A stretch of DNA of 27,801 bases from a virus (Duplodnaviria; Heunggongvirae; Uroviricota; Caudoviricetes), in IMG/VR virus record IMGVR_UViG_2802429218_000003, positions 1 to 27,801 of that record. One strand, written 5' to 3'. Shown here in pieces: positions 1,078 to 27,710 of the stretch. The position numbers and the translations under genes were made by a program. Under the pieces are notes generated by a model. It had not been told where the DNA came from and did not search any database. It was given only the letters and a program-made list of their open reading frames with translations. Position 1 is the first letter of the stretch, and every line of letters begins with the position of its first letter.

Positions 1078-3653
1078 CGTCCACCTCCGGAGAACAGACC
1101 ACCATCGCGCATCTGCCCGGTCACAACATCCATTGCCGCCTTACGGGCTACGTCATAAACAGCTTTCAGTGCCTGTGGCCCTATCTGACCGTTCGTGCCG
1201 TCGTTGTTAATCACCACATGGTTATTCTGCTCAAACGTCCCGGACGCCTGCGAGCGGCTGTCCGCCATGCTGCCAGGTGTACCGACATAACCGCCGGTGG
1301 CATAGCCGCGCATCAGCCGGTAGAGATTTCCCACGCCAATCCGGCTGGTTGCCTCCTTCGTGAAGACAAACTCACCACGGTGAACAATCCCCGCTGGCTC
1401 ATATTTGCCGCCGGTTCCCGTAAATCCCCCGGTCGCAAAATAGAATTTCGCCGCAGCTGCCTGAATGGCTGTACCGCCTGACGCTGATGCGCCGCCACCA
1501 ACAGCCCCGCCAATGGCGCTGCCGATACTCCCGACAATCCCCACCATTGCCTGCTTAAGCAGAATTTCTGTCATCATGGACAGCACGGAACGGGTGAAGC
1601 TGCGCCAGTTCTGTTCACTGCCGGTCAGCATCGCCGCCATATTCTGCGCAATACCATCAAAGGTCTGCGTGGCTGCACTTTTAACCTGCGACATACTGTC
1701 CGTGGCGCTCTCTTCCCACTCACTCCAGCCGGACTTGAGGCCTGCCATCCAGCTCCCGCGAAGCTGGTCTTCAGCCGCCCAGGTCTTTTTCTGCTCTGAC
1801 ATGACGTTATTCAGCGCCAGCGAATTATCGCCATACTGTTCCTTCAGGCGCTGTTCTGTGGCTTCCCGCGCTGCCTGCCGGTCAGTAAGCCCCCGGTTTT
1901 TCGCCTCAATGGCTGCCCGTTTTGCCCGTTGTTGCTGTGCGAACTTATCCGCCTGCTGCGCCAGCGCATTCAGGTGCTCCTGATACGTGACCTTATCGCC
2001 AAGTACAGCCAGCTGGCGTTTGTACTCCAGCGTCTCATCTTTATGCGCCAGCAGGGATTTCTCCTGTGCGGACAGCTGGCGACGTTGTGCCGCCTCCTCC
2101 AGTACAGCGAACTGACTCTCCGCCTTCCACAAATCCCGGCGCTGCTGGCTGATTTTCTCATTCGCTCCGGCATGCTTCTCCAGCATCCGGAGTTCTGCCT
2201 GAAGCGTCAGCAGGGCAGCATGAGCACTGTCTTCCTGGCGATCGCCTGCAGACACTTTCACGCCGGACTGCTTCGGCTTTTTCAGCGTCGCTTCATAATC
2301 CTTTTTCGCTGCCGCCATCAGCGTGTTGTAATCTGCCTGCAGGATTTTCCCGTCTTTCAGTGCCTTATTCAGTTCTTCCTGACGGGCGGTATATTTCTCC
2401 AGCGGCGTCTGCAGGCGTTCGTAAGCCTTCTGCGCCTCTTCGGTATATTTCAGCCGTGATGCCTCAGACTCGGCCCAGTCCTTTGCTGCCATCTCTCTGG
2501 CCTTTTCAAGATCGGCCTGCAACGTGGCGGCTGAAAGCCCAAGTTGCGCATTCGCTCTGTCCTCCCATGCTCCCCGGAGATTGGCAAGAAATGCTGAGGT
2601 TTTACCGCGCCGGTGGCTCCGGCTCTGATACCACTGCCATTTTTTGTCCGCCTCATCAAAAGCCTTTTCTGCTTTCTCCAGCATTCCCTGGGCAGTGTCC
2701 GGGCGACCAATATCCAGCACCGAATCCCACATGGATTTGAATGCCCGTGCTGTCCTGTCTGCCCAGGTCTCCAGCGTGCCCATGTTCTCTTTCAGGCGGC
2801 GGGTCTGGTCATCAAACCCTTTCGTTGCGGCCTCGTTCGCCGCCTGCAATGCCCCGGCTTCATCTCCGGAACGCTGCAACTGAGCAACATACGCAATCTG
2901 CTCCGCCGTCACGTTATGGAACTGACGTGCCATCGCTGTCAGTCCCGACGTCGGGTCTGTGGTCAGCTTCCCGAAGGCTTCAGCGACCTTGTCCACCTCC
3001 ACGCCGGATGCAGAGGAGAAACGCGCCACACTCTGGCTGATCGCCTCAAACTGCTCACCACCACGCACACCGGCATTCACCAGCGCCGTCAGTGACTCGC
3101 TGGTCTGGTTAAACGTCAGCCCTGCCGCCTGCCCGGCTCTGGACAGGACCAGCATGCGATCTGCCGTCAGACCCGACTGATTGCCGGAAAGGACCAGCGT
3201 TTTGTTGAAATCGGACAGGGTTGAGTTGCCCTGATACCAGGCATACGCCAGCGCACCGGTCGCCACCGCCAGCGAGGTGGCCCCCACCATCGGCAGGGTG
3301 ATCGCACCGGCAAGCCCCCTGAACATGGGGATCATCCCGCCGAAGGAGTCCTTCACCTGACCACCCTGTTGCAGCAGGATCAGCCACGGACTTTGCCCGC
3401 CTGCAAGCTGCGTGGCCACGTCGGTGAACTGTGCAGGCAGCATACGCATGGCGGCTTTATACTGCCCGACGGAAATCCCCGCTTTCTGTGCAGCCAGCGC
3501 CTGTCGGCTCAGCGACTGTTCAACGACTGCCGCTGTTTTTTTCGCATCACTTTCCGTACCGGAAAAATGACGCCTGACTCTGGCCATCTGCTCGTCAAAT
3601 CTGGCCGCATCCAGACTTAAATCAACGACCAGATCGCCTACCGGTTCAGCCAT
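1074..3653 (-). CDS. H: Tail tape measure protein H
   Basis: 859-aa ORF with the lambda gpH N-terminus (MAEPVGDLVVDLSLDAARFDEQ), coiled-coil-rich middle and glycine-rich C-terminal region; lambda gpH is 853 aa. Confidence 0.95.
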   Translation of the reverse strand: MAEPVGDLVVDLSLDAARFDEQMARVRRHFSGTESDAKKTAAVVEQSLSRQALAAQKAGISVGQYKAAMRMLPAQFTDVATQLAGGQSPWLILLQQGGQVKDSFGGMIPMFRGLAGAITLPMVGATSLAVATGALAYAWYQGNSTLSDFNKTLVLSGNQSGLTADRMLVLSRAGQAAGLTFNQTSESLTALVNAGVRGGEQFEAISQSVARFSSASGVEVDKVAEAFGKLTTDPTSGLTAMARQFHNVTAEQIAYVAQLQRSGDEAGALQAANEAATKGFDDQTRRLKENMGTLETWADRTARAFKSMWDSVLDIGRPDTAQGMLEKAEKAFDEADKKWQWYQSRSHRRGKTSAFLANLRGAWEDRANAQLGLSAATLQADLEKAREMAAKDWAESEASRLKYTEEAQKAYERLQTPLEKYTARQEELNKALKDGKILQADYNTLMAAAKKDYEATLKKPKQSGVKVSAGDRQEDSAHAALLTLQAELRMLEKHAGANEKISQQRRDLWKAESQFAVLEEAAQRRQLSAQEKSLLAHKDETLEYKRQLAVLGDKVTYQEHLNALAQQADKFAQQQRAKRAAIEAKNRGLTDRQAAREATEQRLKEQYGDNSLALNNVMSEQKKTWAAEDQLRGSWMAGLKSGWSEWEESATDSMSQVKSAATQTFDGIAQNMAAMLTGSEQNWRSFTRSVLSMMTEILLKQAMVGIVGSIGSAIGGAVGGGASASGGTAIQAAAAKFYFATGGFTGTGGKYEPAGIVHRGEFVFTKEATSRIGVGNLYRLMRGYATGGYVGTPGSMADSRSQASGTFEQNNHVVINNDGTNGQIGPQALKAVYDVARKAAMDVVTGQMRDGGLFSGGGR

Positions 3654-4080
3654 ACCGGACTCCTCCTGCGATCCCTTCTGATACTGTCATCAGCATTACG
3701 TCATCCTCCGTCATGTCCGCCACATCCGGGGAAGCGGGGATAACTTCTTTCCCGTCCGGGCCAAAACGAACGCCTCCGGCAAGCCCTGCCGCTTTCTGCA
3801 TCAGCACATCATCTTCAGGCTCTTCGTCAGCCTCGCGCCGGTTCAGCAGACTGAAATCCAGCGGATGCATATCCGGATCGCTGAAAAACAGGCTGAGCAC
3901 GGTGTATGTCAGCCCGGAAAAGTGCATATCCAGCAGAACATCATGAAAATAATGGGTACTGTAAAAGCGGTGCCAGTCGGCATACTCCGTGGATGACATC
4001 CCGGCAAGCATGGCGCGCCAGTCGGGTCGCCCCATCTCACGCGCCAGTTTCAGGGCAAAACTCAGCTCACCGTCGAACAC
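3646..4080 (-). CDS. T: Tail assembly chaperone T frame (expressed as G-T fusion by -1 frameshift)
   Basis: 144-aa ORF in the -1 frame relative to G, overlapping the G 3' end; lambda arrangement with slippery heptamer at 4071-4077. Confidence 0.8.
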   Translation of the reverse strand: MFDGELSFALKLAREMGRPDWRAMLAGMSSTEYADWHRFYSTHYFHDVLLDMHFSGLTYTVLSLFFSDPDMHPLDFSLLNRREADEEPEDDVLMQKAAGLAGGVRFGPDGKEVIPASPDVADMTEDDVMLMTVSEGIAGGVRYG

Positions 4081-13481: not shown

Positions 13482-14001
13482 TCAGCAACCCCGGTATCAG
13501 TTCATCCAGCGCGGCTGCTTTGTTCATGGCTTTGATGATATCCCGTTTCAGGAAATCAACATGTCGGTTTTCCAGTTCCGGAAAACGCCGCTGCACCGAC
13601 AGGGGGATCCCGTCGAGAATACTGGCAATTTCACCTGCGATCCGCGACAGCACGAAAGTACAGAATGCGGTTTCCACCACTTCAGCTGAGTCTCTGGCAT
13701 TCTTCAGTTCCTGTGCGTCGGCCTGCGCACGCGTAAGTCGATGGCGTTCGTACTCAATAGTCCCTGGCTGGAGATCTGCCTCGCTGGCCTGGCGCAGTTC
13801 TTCAACCTCCCGGCGCAGCTTTTCGTTCTCAATTTCAGCATCCCTTTCGGCATACCATTTTATAACGGCGGCAGAGTCATAAAGCACCTCATTACCCTTG
13901 CCACCGCCTCGCAGAACGGGCATTCCCTGTTCCTGCCAGTTCTGAATGGTACGGATACTCGCACCGAAAATGTCAGCCAGCTGCTTTTTGTTGACTTCCA
14001 T
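13456..14001 (-). CDS. Nu1: Terminase small subunit Nu1
   Basis: 181-aa ORF; sequence (MEVNKKQLADIFGASIRTIQNWQEQGMPVLRGGGKGNEVLYD...) matches recalled lambda gpNu1. Confidence 0.95.
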
Positions 14002-14954: not shown

Positions 14955-15238
14955 TTTGTCGCTCCATGCGCTTGCTCTTCATCTAGCGGTTAAAATATTA
15001 CTTCAAATCTTTCTGTATGAAGATTTGAGCACGTTGGCCTTACATACATCTGTCGGTTGTATTTCCCTCCAGAATGCCAGCAGGACCGCACTTTGTTACG
15101 CAACCAATACTATTAAGTGAAAACATTCCTAATATTTGACATAAATCATCAACAAAACACAAAGAGGTCAGACCAGATTGAAACGATAAAAACGATCTTG
15201 CAAACTACGCACTCTCATATCATATGGAAGGTTTATCT

Positions 15239-15649
15239 ATGGATCAGGTAGTCATTTTTAAACAAATATTTGATAAAGTTCGAAACGATTTAAACTATCA
15301 ATGGTTTTATTCTGAGCTAAAACGTCACAATGTCTCACATTACATTTACTATTTAGCCACAGAGAATGTTCATATTGTATTAAAAAATGATAATATAGTG
15401 TTATTAAAGGGCCTAAAAAACATTGTGTCTGTCAAATTTTCAAAGGATAGGCATCTTATAGAAACGACCTCTAATAAGCTGAAATCCAGAGAGATCACAT
15501 TTCAGGAATACAGAAGAAACCTTGCTAAAGCAGGAGTTTTTCGGTGGGTTACAAATATCCACGAACAAAAAAGATATTACTATACCTTTGATAAATCATT
15601 ACTCTTTACTGAAAACATACAGAGCACATCACAAATATTTCCACACTAA
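15239..15649 (+). CDS. Hypothetical protein, DUF1398/YbcV-like
   Basis: Track ORF 15224-15649; second Met at 15239 has a GAAGG Shine-Dalgarno and gives 136 aa; AT-rich; a lambda right-end ORF is recalled as similar but not identical. Confidence 0.6.
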
Positions 15650-17454: not shown

Positions 17455-17530
17455 TGGTGCTGGTTAACGGACTTGAACCGCTACCCATTCGCTTACAAGG
17501 CGACTGCTCTACCATTGGAGCTAAACCAGC
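17455..17530 (-). tRNA. tRNA-like gene, anticodon UGU (Thr-like)
   Basis: 76-nt minus-strand sequence folds as a cloverleaf: acceptor stem GCTGGTT/AACCAGC (7 bp), D-stem GCTC/GAGC, anticodon loop CTTGTAA, T-arm AGCGG-TTCAAGT-CCGTT, 3' ACCA. Confidence 0.65.
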
Positions 17531-17535
17531 ATATT

Positions 17536-17610
17536 TGGCGGGACAGCGTGGACTCGAACCACGATAAGAAGGTTAACAGCCTTCCGTAATGACCTTTATA
17601 CGACTGACCC
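17536..17610 (-). tRNA. tRNA-like gene, anticodon GUU (Asn-like); possibly degenerate
   Basis: 75-nt minus-strand sequence: T-arm CGTGG-TTCGAGT-CCACG, anticodon stem GAAGG/CCTTC with loop CTGTTAA, 3' GCCA; acceptor stem has one T-T mismatch and the D-stem is weak. Confidence 0.5.
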
Positions 17611-24322: not shown

Positions 24323-24550
24323 TTATGCTGCCAGAAGGTTCTTTTTGCTTATTTCAAGCAATTCGCTTGCTTGATATTTGCCACCAGAAATCTCTTCGAT
24401 TTTTGAGGCGTATTTCGTTTTCCCAAAAAACTCAGTCTTAGGGAGGAAGCCGTTTTTGAGCCACTTATAGACAGCCCTTTCGCTAACTCCACAAGCCTTC
24501 GCAACTTCAGGGATGCCGACACTCTTAATCGGCTCATCAAGATTTTGCAT
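24323..24550 (-). CDS. cro: Cro-like HTH repressor
   Basis: 75-aa ORF divergent from cI, first gene of the rightward early operon; HTH-like segment VAKACGVSERAVYKWLKNG; not lambda Cro. Confidence 0.75.
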   Translation of the reverse strand: MQNLDEPIKSVGIPEVAKACGVSERAVYKWLKNGFLPKTEFFGKTKYASKIEEISGGKYQASELLEISKKNLLAA

Positions 24551-24627
24551 AGGAATACCTCTTTCGTACTTTCAGTACGTATTATGGTTGAACTGAAAGT
24601 TTTTGCAAGTGCTTTAGTATCGTACTC
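24551..24627. promoter_or_regulatory. oR/pR/pRM divergent promoter-operator region
   Basis: 77-bp cI-cro intergenic region containing palindrome CGTAC-TTTCA-GTACG (24555-24569), inverted repeat partner AACTGAAAGTT (24581-24591) and a further CGTACT (24611-24616). Confidence 0.6.
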
Positions 24628-25335
24628 ATGGTTCAGAATGAAAAAGTGCGCAAAGAATTCGCCCAGCGGCTAGCGCAAGCCTGTAAAGAAGCTGGTCTTG
24701 ATGAACATGGTAGGGGAATGGCCATAGCCCGTGCCCTTTCTCTTTCGTCCAAAGGCGTTAGCAAATGGTTTAATGCTGAGTCTTTACCGCGTCAGGAAAA
24801 AATGAATGCGCTTGCGAAATTTCTAAACGTTGATGTTGTTTGGCTTCAGCACGGCACTTCGTTAAATGGAGCGAATGATGAAGATACTCTTTCATTTGTT
24901 GGCAAATTTAAAAAAGGGTTAGTGCGCGTGGTTGGTGAGGCAATTCTTGGTGTTGATGGTGCCATCGAGATGACCGAAGAGCGCGATGGGTGGCTCAAAA
25001 TTTATAGCGATGATCCAGATGCCTTTGGCCTTCGTGTGAAAGGAGACAGCATGTGGCCCAGAATAAAATCAGGAGAATATGTACTCATTGAGCCTAACAC
25101 CAAAGTATTCCCGGGTGATGAGGTGTTTGTCAGAACCATCGAAGGACACAACATGATCAAGGTTCTTGGCTATGACAGAGATGGAGAATACCAATTTACA
25201 AGCATCAACCAGGACCACAGGCCAATAACGTTGCCTTATCATCAAGTAGCAAAGGTGGAGTATGTGGCTGGTATTCTGAAGCAATCTCGCCATCTGGATG
25301 ACATTGAGGCAAGGGAATGGCTGAAAAGTTCGTGA
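24628..25335 (+). CDS. cI: CI-type prophage repressor (N-terminal HTH, C-terminal LexA-like S24 peptidase domain)
   Basis: 235-aa ORF divergent from cro; HTH-like N-terminus; C-terminal domain with the GDSM serine motif (VKGDSMWPRI) typical of LexA/CI autocleaving repressors; sequence is not lambda CI. Confidence 0.9.
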   Translation: MVQNEKVRKEFAQRLAQACKEAGLDEHGRGMAIARALSLSSKGVSKWFNAESLPRQEKMNALAKFLNVDVVWLQHGTSLNGANDEDTLSFVGKFKKGLVRVVGEAILGVDGAIEMTEERDGWLKIYSDDPDAFGLRVKGDSMWPRIKSGEYVLIEPNTKVFPGDEVFVRTIEGHNMIKVLGYDRDGEYQFTSINQDHRPITLPYHQVAKVEYVAGILKQSRHLDDIEAREWLKSS

Positions 25336-25440
25336 CTTCATCGTCACATAGCTGATAGTCAGTGGCCTAAAAAGACGTTTGGGTCGTGAATTAGTTTTCA
25401 AACATCTATGTTTGGTGCCTATATCTAGGAAAAATAGGTT

Positions 25441-26178
25441 TTGCAAAATAACTATCTACAGGTTATAGCCTATACTAGGCGCATGAATGATGGTATGACC
25501 AAGCCATTCCTTTGTACTTGCCAAGATGGGCTGGCTTACATAGTTAAAGGAAGGCCAAAACTTCGCCAAAAAGAGCTTGTAGCAGAATTTATTGCCGCCC
25601 ATCTAGCAAAACAGATAGGTCTGCCATGTCCTGATTTTTGCATTGTTGATGTTGATTGTGGGTTAATCGAGTTCATGCCTGACTTGCGTGGTGAGCTTTT
25701 GCCTGGACCTGCATTTGCTACCCGCTTTATTGAAAATGCATCAATCATAAATATTCAACAAGCAAGGAGTGCTGTAACCATTCAGGAACAAAAGAAAATA
25801 TTCTTCTTTGACCGCTGGATAAACAACGCAGACAGATCATTGACTGACATTGGTGGTAATGTAAACATAATTTACGATGCATTTAACAATAGGTATTACC
25901 TGATTGACCATAATCTGGCGTTCGCGCAGGATACAAGATCTCATGAGTATGATGTCCATGTGTATTCGCCGAATGGAAGACCGTGGGTTTTCGACATGCT
26001 CGACGAACCCGAACTGATGGATCTTGCAAATGATGCTATTAGTTCAGTAGAGGAGAAATTTAATCAGCTTCCGGATGAGTGGTTTTCAACCGATGAAGAA
26101 CGAAGGCTAATGCTGAATGAGATAATGAACTGCCTGAACAGAGTGCACGACAGAGAGTTTTGGAGTAACATCAAATGA
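25441..26178 (+). CDS. HipA-like kinase-domain protein (standalone C-terminal-domain type; start codon uncertain)
   Basis: 245-aa track ORF starting at TTG 25441 (AGGA 10-13 nt upstream); alternative ATG starts at 25483 and 25495. Segment ELVAEFIAAHLAKQIGLPCPDFCIV resembles recalled E. coli HipA (EYYCLLLAKELGLNVPDAEII); FFFDRWINNADRS aligns with the HipA catalytic loop VFQWLIGATDGHAKN but has Ser in place of His. Confidence 0.7.
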   Translation: MQNNYLQVIAYTRRMNDGMTKPFLCTCQDGLAYIVKGRPKLRQKELVAEFIAAHLAKQIGLPCPDFCIVDVDCGLIEFMPDLRGELLPGPAFATRFIENASIINIQQARSAVTIQEQKKIFFFDRWINNADRSLTDIGGNVNIIYDAFNNRYYLIDHNLAFAQDTRSHEYDVHVYSPNGRPWVFDMLDEPELMDLANDAISSVEEKFNQLPDEWFSTDEERRLMLNEIMNCLNRVHDREFWSNIK

Positions 26179-26993
26179 CCACACCATGCCTGTATAGCAT
26201 TATTAGATATGCTCCATATGCAGAAACCGAAGAGTTTGCTAATGTCGGTGTGGTTCTTTGTGCCCCGAAATTAGGTCAGTTTTGCTTTAAACTGACCCAA
26301 AGCAACAATGCCAGAGTAAAAAACTTTTTTCAGGATGAAATCATTTTCCCTCACGCGAGGGATGCAATTGCAAGAGAGCTAAAATTTGCTCAAGAGCAAA
26401 GTTATAAATTCAATTCTCCTGAAAAATTAGCAAATTTTTTCAACTACTTAATTGGCAGGAAAGAGTCAATCATTCATTTTAGCTCTGCAAGAGTTGCAAT
26501 GTCTGCTTGTCCACAAGACATGATGCACATACTTTTTAATAAGTTTGTACATCATTCAGAAATAACAAAAGAATCTCGTGAGACCATCCTGACGAGAGAG
26601 CTTAAGCATCGTTTCTCTCATTATAACGAACTCAGGAACGCCTTTAAAAAGGAAATGCTTGGTGGTGAACTAACGCGGTTTTCTGTACCATTTGTTGCCC
26701 GTCACGATGGAGAGATTTTATGTGCTATCAAACCCCTAACATTCACTCAGGACAAGCCTGAGAAAATGTTGGAGCACTGCGACTCTTGGACGGCCAAAAT
26801 TCTGCGCGCCGCCAGTGAAAAAATTTTATCTGTCTCAAATGTGTTATTTACGATAGATGCACCTCGCCAGCCAAGTGAGCTTGAGGTAAAAGCGATGAGT
26901 GAGATTCGTAAGACATTCGATGAGAAAGGTATAAATCACGTAGAGCATCAGGATGAAGCATCAATAGTAAAGTTTGCTAAGCAAGCAATTTAA
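26175..26993 (+). CDS. Hypothetical protein, partner of the HipA-like gene (possibly DUF3037-like)
   Basis: 272-aa ORF whose ATG (26175-26177) overlaps the upstream TGA (ATGA coupling); the N-terminal motif YSIIRYAPYAETEEFANVGVVL is tentatively recalled as characteristic of DUF3037; no catalytic motif recognised. Confidence 0.7.
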   Translation: MTTPCLYSIIRYAPYAETEEFANVGVVLCAPKLGQFCFKLTQSNNARVKNFFQDEIIFPHARDAIARELKFAQEQSYKFNSPEKLANFFNYLIGRKESIIHFSSARVAMSACPQDMMHILFNKFVHHSEITKESRETILTRELKHRFSHYNELRNAFKKEMLGGELTRFSVPFVARHDGEILCAIKPLTFTQDKPEKMLEHCDSWTAKILRAASEKILSVSNVLFTIDAPRQPSELEVKAMSEIRKTFDEKGINHVEHQDEASIVKFAKQAI

Positions 26994-27019
26994 CCCGGCC
27001 ACCGAGCCGGGTTTTCTTT
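26992..27019 (+). terminator. Intrinsic terminator ending the cI-cassette transcript (tImm-like)
   Basis: 7-bp stem ACCCGGC/GCCGGGT with 6-nt loop followed by TTTTCTTTT, immediately after the 26993 stop. Confidence 0.7.
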
Positions 27020-27194
27020 TCCTCTCGATCGCCCACCTAAAAATACATAATCGATTGTATTTGTTGAAAAATAAATAGATACAACTTGCTAAACAGTGCA
27101 ACCCTGATCCCTGCCCTATCACCTTCACCCTCAACATTTACAAAAATAAAATACCTTATATATCAAAACCATATCTCGAGAAAACGAATGAACA

Positions 27195-27260
27195 ATAAAA
27201 TTTCGTACTTATGGTTATTGATTATATCGAACCAATAGTTCATTATTATCACCATCAGCA
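27195..27260 (+). promoter_or_regulatory. Putative oL/pL region
   Basis: Contains TTTCGTACTT-ATGGTT (27201-27216), shared with oR, and candidate -35 TTGATT (27218-27223) and -10 CATTAT (27241-27246) hexamers oriented toward N; exact sites not determined. Confidence 0.35.
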
Positions 27261-27293
27261 GGACGCTGGAAGCCAAACGGAACAGACTGGCAG

Positions 27294-27339
27294 GCTCTTT
27301 AAACAACGTCGAACTCTCGACTACGTGGCTGAAAAGCCA
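27294..27339 (+). promoter_or_regulatory. nutL: nutL: boxA-like GCTCTTTAAACAA (27294-27306) and boxB hairpin TGGCT-GAAA-AGCCA (27326-27339)
   Basis: Read directly upstream of N; boxB has a 5-bp stem and GAAA loop, the same architecture as nutR. Confidence 0.6.
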
Positions 27340-27437
27340 GATCACCCAACCACATGAGCTGTGGGATGCAATGCCGAAGCAACCGTCTCAGGAGGAGCTT
27401 CGAGATTGCATCACCAAAGTTTATTCGGGAGGAATCT

Positions 27438-27710
27438 ATGTCCAGAAAAACAGAATTTAAAGGCACCGCAGCTTCTCGCCGTAGAGCTCGTCGCGCAAAC
27501 CTGCAAAGTCAGGAGGCGATTAGCTCCGACAAGCTACACAGGCCAACCACCTCACGAGTGGTCTTGCAATGCAAGCGCAAACCAGCAATGAGAGCAGAAG
27601 TTATAACTCTGACAACGTTGATCAGAAAATATGAAGGTTCAACTTGTCTTCCAAACGTAGCTCTTTACGCGGCAGGCTACCGGAAATCAAAACAACTGAC
27701 GGCGAGATGA
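27438..27710 (+). CDS. N: N-type transcription antiterminator (arginine-rich motif; P22 gp24-like C-terminus)
   Basis: Track ORF 27354-27710; ATG at 27438 has a GGGAGG Shine-Dalgarno and gives 90 aa; N-terminal ARM TAASRRRARRANLQ; C-terminus LPNVALYAAGYRKSKQLTAR matches the recalled P22 N C-terminus. Confidence 0.8.
   Translation: MSRKTEFKGTAASRRRARRANLQSQEAISSDKLHRPTTSRVVLQCKRKPAMRAEVITLTTLIRKYEGSTCLPNVALYAAGYRKSKQLTAR

Follow-up and report, generated by a model that had tools for sequence, protein, structure and literature searches.

What do the two genes between the cI-type repressor and the pL operon of the Caudoviricetes record IMGVR_UViG_2802429218_000003 encode, and do they form a new kind of system? 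The stretch analyzed here, positions 1 to 27,801 of that record and hereafter the window, is a lambdoid Escherichia coli prophage. A sequence-only reading of it, made without database searches, had singled out the two genes as a candidate uncharacterized phage-exclusion cassette. We find it quite likely that the cassette is a diverged version of HipAD (DS-6; PDC-M66 in PADLOC), a two-gene anti-phage system, carried as exchangeable cargo in the slot between repressor and terminator of a lambdoid prophage with 933W immunity. Judged by homology, the cassette is probably defensive, but the kind of system is already known. We refer to its first gene, which encodes a kinase of the HipA_2 family, as hipA and to its second, which encodes a two-domain DUF3037 protein, as hipD.

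The Cassette Belongs to the HipAD/DS-6 Family

The DS-6 system, described in the DefensePredictor paper (PMC13092281), pairs DS-6A, a HipA-related kinase, with DS-6B, a protein that carries DUF3037 and DUF1829. According to the same paper, Brenes & Laub 2025 (pmid 40409266) came upon the system independently and gave it the name HipAD. In E. coli, DS-6 lowers the plating of Bas1 by 10^3.9- to 10^5.2-fold (PMC13092281 supplementary tables), and defense is lost in the DS-6A kinase mutant D139A (PMC13092281). AlphaFold3 predicts a complex of the A and B proteins with an interface predicted template modeling score (ipTM) of 0.76–0.79 and a weaker contact with DNA (ipTM 0.67); the toxin–antitoxin or abortive model of DS-6 is the authors' hypothesis only (PMC13092281). 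A related pair is part of the Retron-Sda1 operon, in which deletion of the HipA gene abolishes defense against Bas51, deletion of the DUF3037 gene is toxic, and the retron parts are dispensable; pairs of a HipA-like and a DUF3037 protein constitute the PADLOC class PDC-M66 (PMC12548924).

Both proteins of the window are homologous to their DS-6 counterparts along their full lengths. HipA aligns end to end with DS-6A, over 240 aa at 44% identity (E 4e-73), and HipD is 49% identical to DS-6B across all 272 aa (E 8e-103). In Pfam, HipA matches HipA_2 (PF20613; E 2.6e-75, residues 11–244 of 245) and neither the classical HipA N- and C-terminal domains nor Pkinase, and HipD matches DUF3037 (PF11236; E 4.5e-19, residues 7–125). 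The PADLOC models PDC-M66A and PDC-M66B recognize HipA (E 9.4e-19) and HipD (E 8.9e-15), respectively, and HipD belongs to PHROG 5137 (E 6e-99). The GenBank record of Escherichia phage PhiR5_1 (PV340545.1) lists cI, 'HipA toxin', and 'HipD antitoxin' in this order, with kil, gam, and bet after them. Because the IMG/VR loci L062–L071 carry the DS-6 sequences at 100% identity, with the gene coordinates and the upstream open reading frame (ORF) of PhiR5_1, we identify the PhiR5_1 pair with the DS-6 pair.

These results bear directly on the sequence-only reading. Its view that the pairing had not been characterized experimentally is overturned by the homology to DS-6/HipAD, the PDC-M66 matches, and the labels in PV340545.1. 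The searches by hidden Markov model, by structure, and against PADLOC that it had suggested return HipA_2 and DUF3037, a kinase fold, and PDC-M66A/B. The hit to a named system removes the claim of novelty and leaves the proposed function in place: homology to the validated DS-6 supports, at the level of sequence, a putative repressor-linked exclusion cassette that includes a kinase and would be expressed in the lysogen. What was suspected to be a new defense system is reclassified as a diverged allele of HipAD/DS-6, a system validated in 2025–2026.

HipA Retains the Kinase Core

The catalytic D139 of DS-6A, the aspartate of the 'NADR' motif, aligns with HipA D131, which is invariant in an alignment of 35 homologues. 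Also invariant in this alignment are E49, D124, N129, R132, G139, N140, N142, and the I155-D156-H157-N158 stretch, and K36 is near-invariant. The AlphaFold2 model of HipA (predicted local distance difference test [pLDDT] 88.8, predicted template modeling score 0.88) resembles PI4KIIalpha, CtkA, HipT, HipA, and RIO kinases in Foldseek searches. Profile searches of PDB sequences recovered no solved structure of a relative for either protein family.

We place the start of hipA at the TTG codon at 25441. The Prokaryotic Genome Annotation Pipeline (PGAP) annotation of an identical cassette in E. coli CFSAN018748 uses the equivalent of ATG 25495, 54 nt 3′ of this codon, which yields a 227-aa protein and removes 18 conserved N-terminal residues. 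The upstream start is preferred because residues 8–18 are conserved in DS-6A and 34 other homologues, all of which start at one alignment column; because, 5′ of the first ATG in frame (25483), Salmonella phage SW-37 differs at four sites, three of them synonymous third-position changes and one non-synonymous; and because an AGGA lies 10 nt 5′ of the TTG.

HipD Is Conserved in Its DUF3037 Domain

The model of HipD (pLDDT 88.5) comprises two domains, residues 1–125 (DUF3037) and 132–272, the second of which is predicted from the model to adopt a restriction-endonuclease-like fold. A Foldseek search of the HipD model against the PDB gave no significant match, and the weak matches are nucleases. 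We scored conservation on 134 distant relatives with 25–35% identity. The invariant positions (P14, E20, F21, G25, and F51) all fall in the N-terminal domain, as do the near-invariant Y7, E17, T18, N23, R47, and F52. The C-terminal domain retains structural positions only (P172, I185, P187, and W205); K186, E200, H201, and D203 are conserved within Enterobacterales only, and no conserved catalytic acidic residue is present in this domain across the 134 relatives. Because the invariant positions all lie in the N-terminal domain, the nuclease-like domain is probably non-catalytic and the DUF3037 motif is the putative functional surface of the protein. HipD as an active nuclease was accordingly rejected as the principal interpretation, the candidate catalytic residues not being conserved family-wide.

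Among 1.84 billion cluster representatives, a profile search recovered 1536 HipD relatives at E ≤ 0.001, 267 of them at E ≤ 1e-30, and nearly all of the best 150 of the 1536 are full-length two-domain proteins.

The Cassette Occupies a Cargo Swap Site

The cI protein of the window is identical to that of phage 933W at 233 of 235 residues (99%). It has the immunity specificity of 933W, and its gene heads the predicted operon. Homology to 933W (95%) and to a prophage of E. coli 10034940-2 (96.5%) extends from the replication genes through cI, ends at 25384, and restarts at 26987/26993, at the terminator (blastn). SW-37 shares only 25393–27015 with the window (85%, blastn) and carries its cassette behind an unrelated 188-aa helix–turn–helix (HTH) repressor. 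The sequence-only reading had let the cassette begin directly after cI; its position behind the repressor stands, but the first 49 nt (25336–25384) belong to the conserved cI flank, and the cassette proper occupies 25385–26992.

The right edge of the site is an intrinsic terminator that abuts the hipD stop codon. Its stem-loop (26992–27013) has 8 pairs, 6 of them GC, and is followed by TTTTCTTTT; it folds at −14.4 kcal/mol (z −3.5), a stability reached by 0 of 200 shuffled sequences. It is homologous to the element annotated in the 933W GenBank record as 'tM, putative terminator for pM transcript', and the same sequence directly follows hipD in PhiR5_1. A clean intrinsic terminator ahead of N had also been proposed from the sequence, and both the fold statistics and the identification of N (PF25694, E 5.6e-31) bear this out.

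Between cI and tM/nutL/N, 933W carries L0084, L0083, stk, and L0081, according to its GenBank annotation, which agrees with the sequence-only reading, where stk was placed at the equivalent position; E. coli 10034940-2 carries genes for a HigB-family toxin, a transcriptional regulator, and a hypothetical protein. Essentially one cI allele is therefore followed by three cargoes, namely the stk module, hipA–hipD, and the higB-like module. Judged from these sequence comparisons, the cI-to-tM slot is a cargo swap site, and it is defined behind one repressor allele to within a few bases. The cassette was also said to be richer in AT than the structural genes, and it is: its GC content is 0.404, compared with 0.571 for the structural genes. 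Its GC content is only modestly below that of the remaining immunity region, with 0.458 for cI and 0.486 for the early genes.

Distribution, Linkage, and Decay

A scan of IMG/VR for relatives of hipD identified 80 loci. The pair is kept together in 78 of these, hipA immediately preceding hipD and overlapping it by the same 4 nt. In 79 loci, SW-37 from a phage collection among them, we also scanned the closest ORF upstream on the same strand. This ORF matches HTH_3 in 68 and Peptidase_S24 in 50 of them, and the upstream repressors are highly diverse (mean column identity 22%). Homologues are found across Enterobacterales and fall into three clades by the identity of their HipD to that of the window: a window clade (73–100%), an intermediate clade (57–61%), and a DS-6 clade (48–51%). 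The viral loci of the window side (L003–L022) and those of DS-6 (L041–L083) form separate clades.

The identities of HipA and HipD to the window proteins are strongly correlated (Spearman 0.94) across 27 listed loci covering the range of identities. HipA is the faster to diverge, with a mean difference of about 9 percentage points. In three loci (L018, L021, and L022) HipD is 73–82% identical to that of the window but HipA only 57–59%, compared with 75–84% for HipA in other loci of comparable HipD identity; this mismatch suggests either recombination within the cassette or faster evolution of the kinase.

Where the pair has decayed, the kinase gene is the one affected. In SW-37 (L003, 3549–4285) a 1-nt deletion in an A-run of hipA, CGCCAAAAAGAG to CGGC-AAAAGAG, causes a frameshift, and hipD is intact (87% identity). 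The resulting 167-aa truncated HipA product (P0100) recurs on 14 other Salmonella contigs and so probably reflects real decay of the toxin gene, not a sequencing error. In a DS-6-clade locus (L049, IMG/VR UViG_2880324937_000002, 1991–4004) a 1.26-kb element of the IS3 family of insertion sequences (orfA 102 aa, orfB 288 aa) interrupts hipA at codon 196, and hipD is again intact. In L026 (3986–4819) an intact hipD occurs without hipA, downstream of an efflux-pump-like ORF and of sequence that does not appear to be from a phage; this may be an orphan antitoxin-like copy. The reverse, a broken hipD beside an intact hipA, was never seen among the relatives surveyed. Such asymmetry, in which hipA is lost and hipD kept, is expected for a toxin–antitoxin pair.

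The allele itself is rare. Among 5426 complete E. coli genomes, two contain it, with 100% identity of the cassette in a prophage of CFSAN018748 (swine, Denmark) and 99.3% in the other genome. CFSAN018748 and the window diverge outside the immunity region. The CFSAN018748 prophage (NZ_CP028192.1, 2563–5262) carries an IS66-family element, ISCro1, within the gene for the terminase small subunit, and the window is uninterrupted at the corresponding position (13544–13552); given this insertion, it is the CFSAN018748 copy, and not that of the window, that is probably defective.

A Model for the Action of HipAD and Its Alternatives

From the order of the genes, the terminator, and the gap between cI and hipA, which has no promoter-like site, we infer that in a lysogen the maintenance promoter pRM would transcribe cI, hipA, and hipD as a single mRNA that ends at the tM-like terminator. 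The kinase activity of HipA would arrest or kill the cell, and HipD, made by coupled translation, would bind HipA and keep it inactive, as has been shown for homologues; the roles of toxin and neutralizer are assigned on the strength of the homologue experiments, the conserved coupling, and the asymmetric decay. We posit that infection by another phage would lift the inhibition by HipD, and that the released HipA would phosphorylate an essential host or phage target, so that the infection would be aborted. Kinase activity is required for defense by DS-6 (PMC13092281). The best candidate for a HipD surface that binds the kinase or senses infection is the strictly conserved motif of the N-terminal DUF3037 domain, and the C-terminal nuclease-like domain would probably serve as a non-catalytic binding domain, possibly for DNA.

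We are cautious in extending the properties of DS-6 to this allele, since several points weigh against doing so. At 44–49% identity the phage range, and even the activity, could differ from those of DS-6; co-transcription from pRM is deduced from the arrangement of the locus; abortive infection is only a hypothesis, for DS-6 as well as here; and both the substrate of the kinase and the phage trigger are hypothetical elements of the mechanism.

A module that serves primarily for addiction, stabilizing the prophage by penalizing its loss or excision and defending against phages only incidentally, would also account for the toxicity of DUF3037 gene deletion in a homologue (PMC12548924), for the constant presence of the pair on prophages beside the maintenance gene, and for the decay of the toxin gene while its partner stays. 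We nevertheless consider such a primary role improbable, because DS-6 cloned on a plasmid, without a prophage, protects up to 10^5-fold in a kinase-dependent manner (PMC13092281) and because unrelated exclusion genes, 933W stk for one, also occur in the slot. The addiction and defense roles are not mutually exclusive. The strict physical linkage of the pair to cI across very different repressor families could instead indicate that the kinase tunes the lysis–lysogeny switch or the induction of its own prophage, for example by phosphorylating a regulator, and does not exclude other phages. To this we assign very little probability: the same cI allele is followed by unrelated cargo in 933W (stk) and in 10034940-2 (a higB-like toxin gene and two further genes), the cassette is also found behind unrelated repressors, and DS-6 defends outside the prophage context (PMC13092281).

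It is likewise highly unlikely that HipD is the effector, a PD-(D/E)xK nuclease cleaving the DNA of phage or host, with HipA as a regulatory or sensing kinase. The nuclease-like domain has no acidic residue on its beta-2 strand, its putative catalytic residues are unconserved across the 134 relatives, in which every invariant position belongs to the other domain, and the structural support from Foldseek is not significant. In homologues, moreover, loss of the DUF3037 gene is toxic and not harmless, and it is deletion or inactivation of the kinase that abolishes defense. We therefore retain the reading of the cassette as a HipAD system in which HipA is the predicted effector and HipD its predicted inhibitor.

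A broader proposal can be made only tentatively, and we regard it as possible but rather doubtful. The cI-to-tM interval, delimited by the 49-nt flank and the terminator, would be a recombination slot that has independently captured Stk, HipAD, and a HigB-like module; the HipAD clade of the window may sense a different trigger through the DUF3037 motif (Y7, P14, E17, T18, E20, F21, N23, G25, R47, F51, and F52), and the target of its kinase could be new. If this is true, both the substrate of HipAD kinase defense and the specificity of its trigger would become directly testable by comparing the clades.

Features of the Immunity Region

The features of the region are collected in table 1. Two co-oriented genes with an ATGA overlap behind a cI-type repressor had been described by the sequence-only reading, and the ORF list and the sequence itself agree. 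The pRM/pR/oR region lies at 24551–24627, between cI and the cro-like gene, whose region is 95% identical to 933W (blastn). The gap between the cI stop and the hipA start measures 105 nt; the ORF list places no ORF in it, and a consensus scan found no promoter-like site there.

Table 1. Coordinates of features in and around the hipA–hipD cassette (positions in the window).
Feature	Position	Strand	Evidence
cro-like gene, divergent from cI	24323–24550	−	ORF list; PGAP label 'DNA-binding protein'
cI-type repressor (HTH + S24 peptidase)	24628–25335	+	Pfam Peptidase_S24 3.8e-16, HTH_3 1.2e-5
Conserved flank after cI stop, left edge of swap site	25336–25384 (49 nt)	+	Homology to 933W and E. coli 10034940-2 prophage ends at 25384
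Weak hairpin overlapping cI flank	25362–25387	+	−15.8 kcal/mol, z −1.8, not significant
Exchangeable hipA–hipD cargo module	25385–26992	+	Homology breaks (blastn)
hipA, HipA_2-family Ser/Thr-type kinase, predicted toxin/effector, 245 aa from TTG	25441–26178	+	PF20613, PDC-M66A, PHROG 3162
Promoter-like site inside hipA, CTGACA-16-CATAAT	25844–25871	+	Consensus scan, 10/12
ATGA start/stop overlap, hipA–hipD translational coupling	26175–26178	+	Read from sequence
hipD, two-domain partner, predicted antitoxin or sensor, 272 aa	26175–26993	+	PF11236, PDC-M66B, PHROG 5137
Intrinsic terminator, right edge of swap site, end of predicted cI–hipA–hipD transcript	26992–27022	+	Scan, fold energy
Antiterminator N, first gene of pL operon downstream of cassette	27438–27710	+	PF25694 N_peptide 5.6e-31; PGAP annotation in CFSAN018748

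The promoter-like site within hipA could be a weak candidate promoter for a transcript of hipD only, for which lambda pLIT is the suggested analogue. Five close-clade variants keep 10–11 of the 12 consensus positions and retain a rare ATA isoleucine codon, and the −10 part reads TATAAT in four close-clade variants, SW-37 among them. We set this candidate aside, since the site is confined to the close clade, being absent from the DS-6 clade, and the region contains about as many promoter-like sites as chance predicts (7 against 6.2). The weak hairpin that overlaps the cI flank was rejected as an attenuator between cI and hipA, as it resembles shuffled sequence in the window and in its counterparts (z −0.45 in SW-37, −0.22 in 10034940-2). 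No RNA family was detected by Rfam in or near the cassette.

Further observations concern the surroundings. PGAP calls a pseudogene, 'frameshifted hypothetical protein', at 27235–27460 in both CFSAN018748 and 10034940-2; it overlaps the N leader in the pL/nutL region and is probably no real gene. Two tRNA genes, Thr-TGT and Asn-GTT, are located at 17455–17610 (−) in the late-regulatory region, where the CFSAN018748 sequence differs. The most AT-rich stretch of the window (15001–15600, GC 0.335) lies near sequence that is 80% identical to the region of the YlcI/YnfO and DUF1398 genes of CFSAN018748 and may be another moron.

Comparison with Known Systems

The closest named system is DS-6 from an E. 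coli ECOR prophage (DS-6A, WP_000389051.1; DS-6B, WP_000210934.1). The two cassettes share both protein families, the gene order, the 4-nt overlap, and full-length collinear homology with retention of the catalytic aspartate (D131 here, D139 in DS-6A), and the protein lengths are similar (245 and 272 aa here, 249 and 275 aa in DS-6). In both, the second gene, immediately downstream and translationally coupled, encodes DUF3037 followed by a DUF1829-like or nuclease-like C-terminal domain, and the pair directly follows cI, precedes the pL operon, and ends in the same terminator sequence. The window differs in its 933W-type repressor, its separate clade, and the limited identity of the kinase (44%) and the partner (49%), and an allele at 44–49% identity offers a natural comparison for specificity. 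The adjacent cassette genes match both the A and the B models of PDC-M66, which is a computational candidate class; the moderate scores suggest that its models were built from other clades. The pair of Retron-Sda1, by its description, represents the same family pairing, with a kinase required for defense and a DUF3037 protein whose loss is toxic. Unlike the cassette, it adjoins a type III retron reverse transcriptase and noncoding RNA in a non-enteric host and does not follow a repressor.

More distant parallels exist with HipBA and HipBST, in which a toxin with a HipA or PI3/4-kinase-like fold is neutralized by a partner from the same operon; the toxin HipA targets GltX and HipT targets TrpS. 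The HipA_2 kinase of the window is about 200 aa shorter than the classical HipA (438-aa chain, PDB 4pu5). In contrast to HipBA, the cassette starts with the toxin gene and lacks an HTH antitoxin of the HipB type, and the partner is a 272-aa DUF3037 protein, in which Pfam detects no HTH domain.

In lambda, the position after cI is held by RexAB, a two-gene exclusion system of lysogens, and the maintenance transcript is terminated before pL/N; RexA and RexB are a sensor and a membrane ion channel. The cassette shares this position and no homology, being composed of a kinase and a DUF3037 protein. In agreement with the sequence-only reading, neither protein resembles RexA or RexB: at E ≤ 0.1, Pfam yields HipA_2 and DUF3037 only, with no Rex family in either protein.

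A further comparison is with 933W Stk, a eukaryote-like exclusion kinase activated by HK97 infection (PMC3681748). Like hipA, stk lies in the slot after a 99%-identical cI and before the same tM, and both encode a prophage kinase for which an exclusion phenotype is known (Stk) or predicted (HipA). The two kinases belong to unrelated families, without detectable similarity to each other (BLASTP E 0.49), and stk is part of a four-gene module (L0084, L0083, stk, and L0081) that includes no DUF3037 partner. Two unrelated kinases, Stk and HipA, in one slot provide a clean example of the turnover of defense genes in the immunity region.

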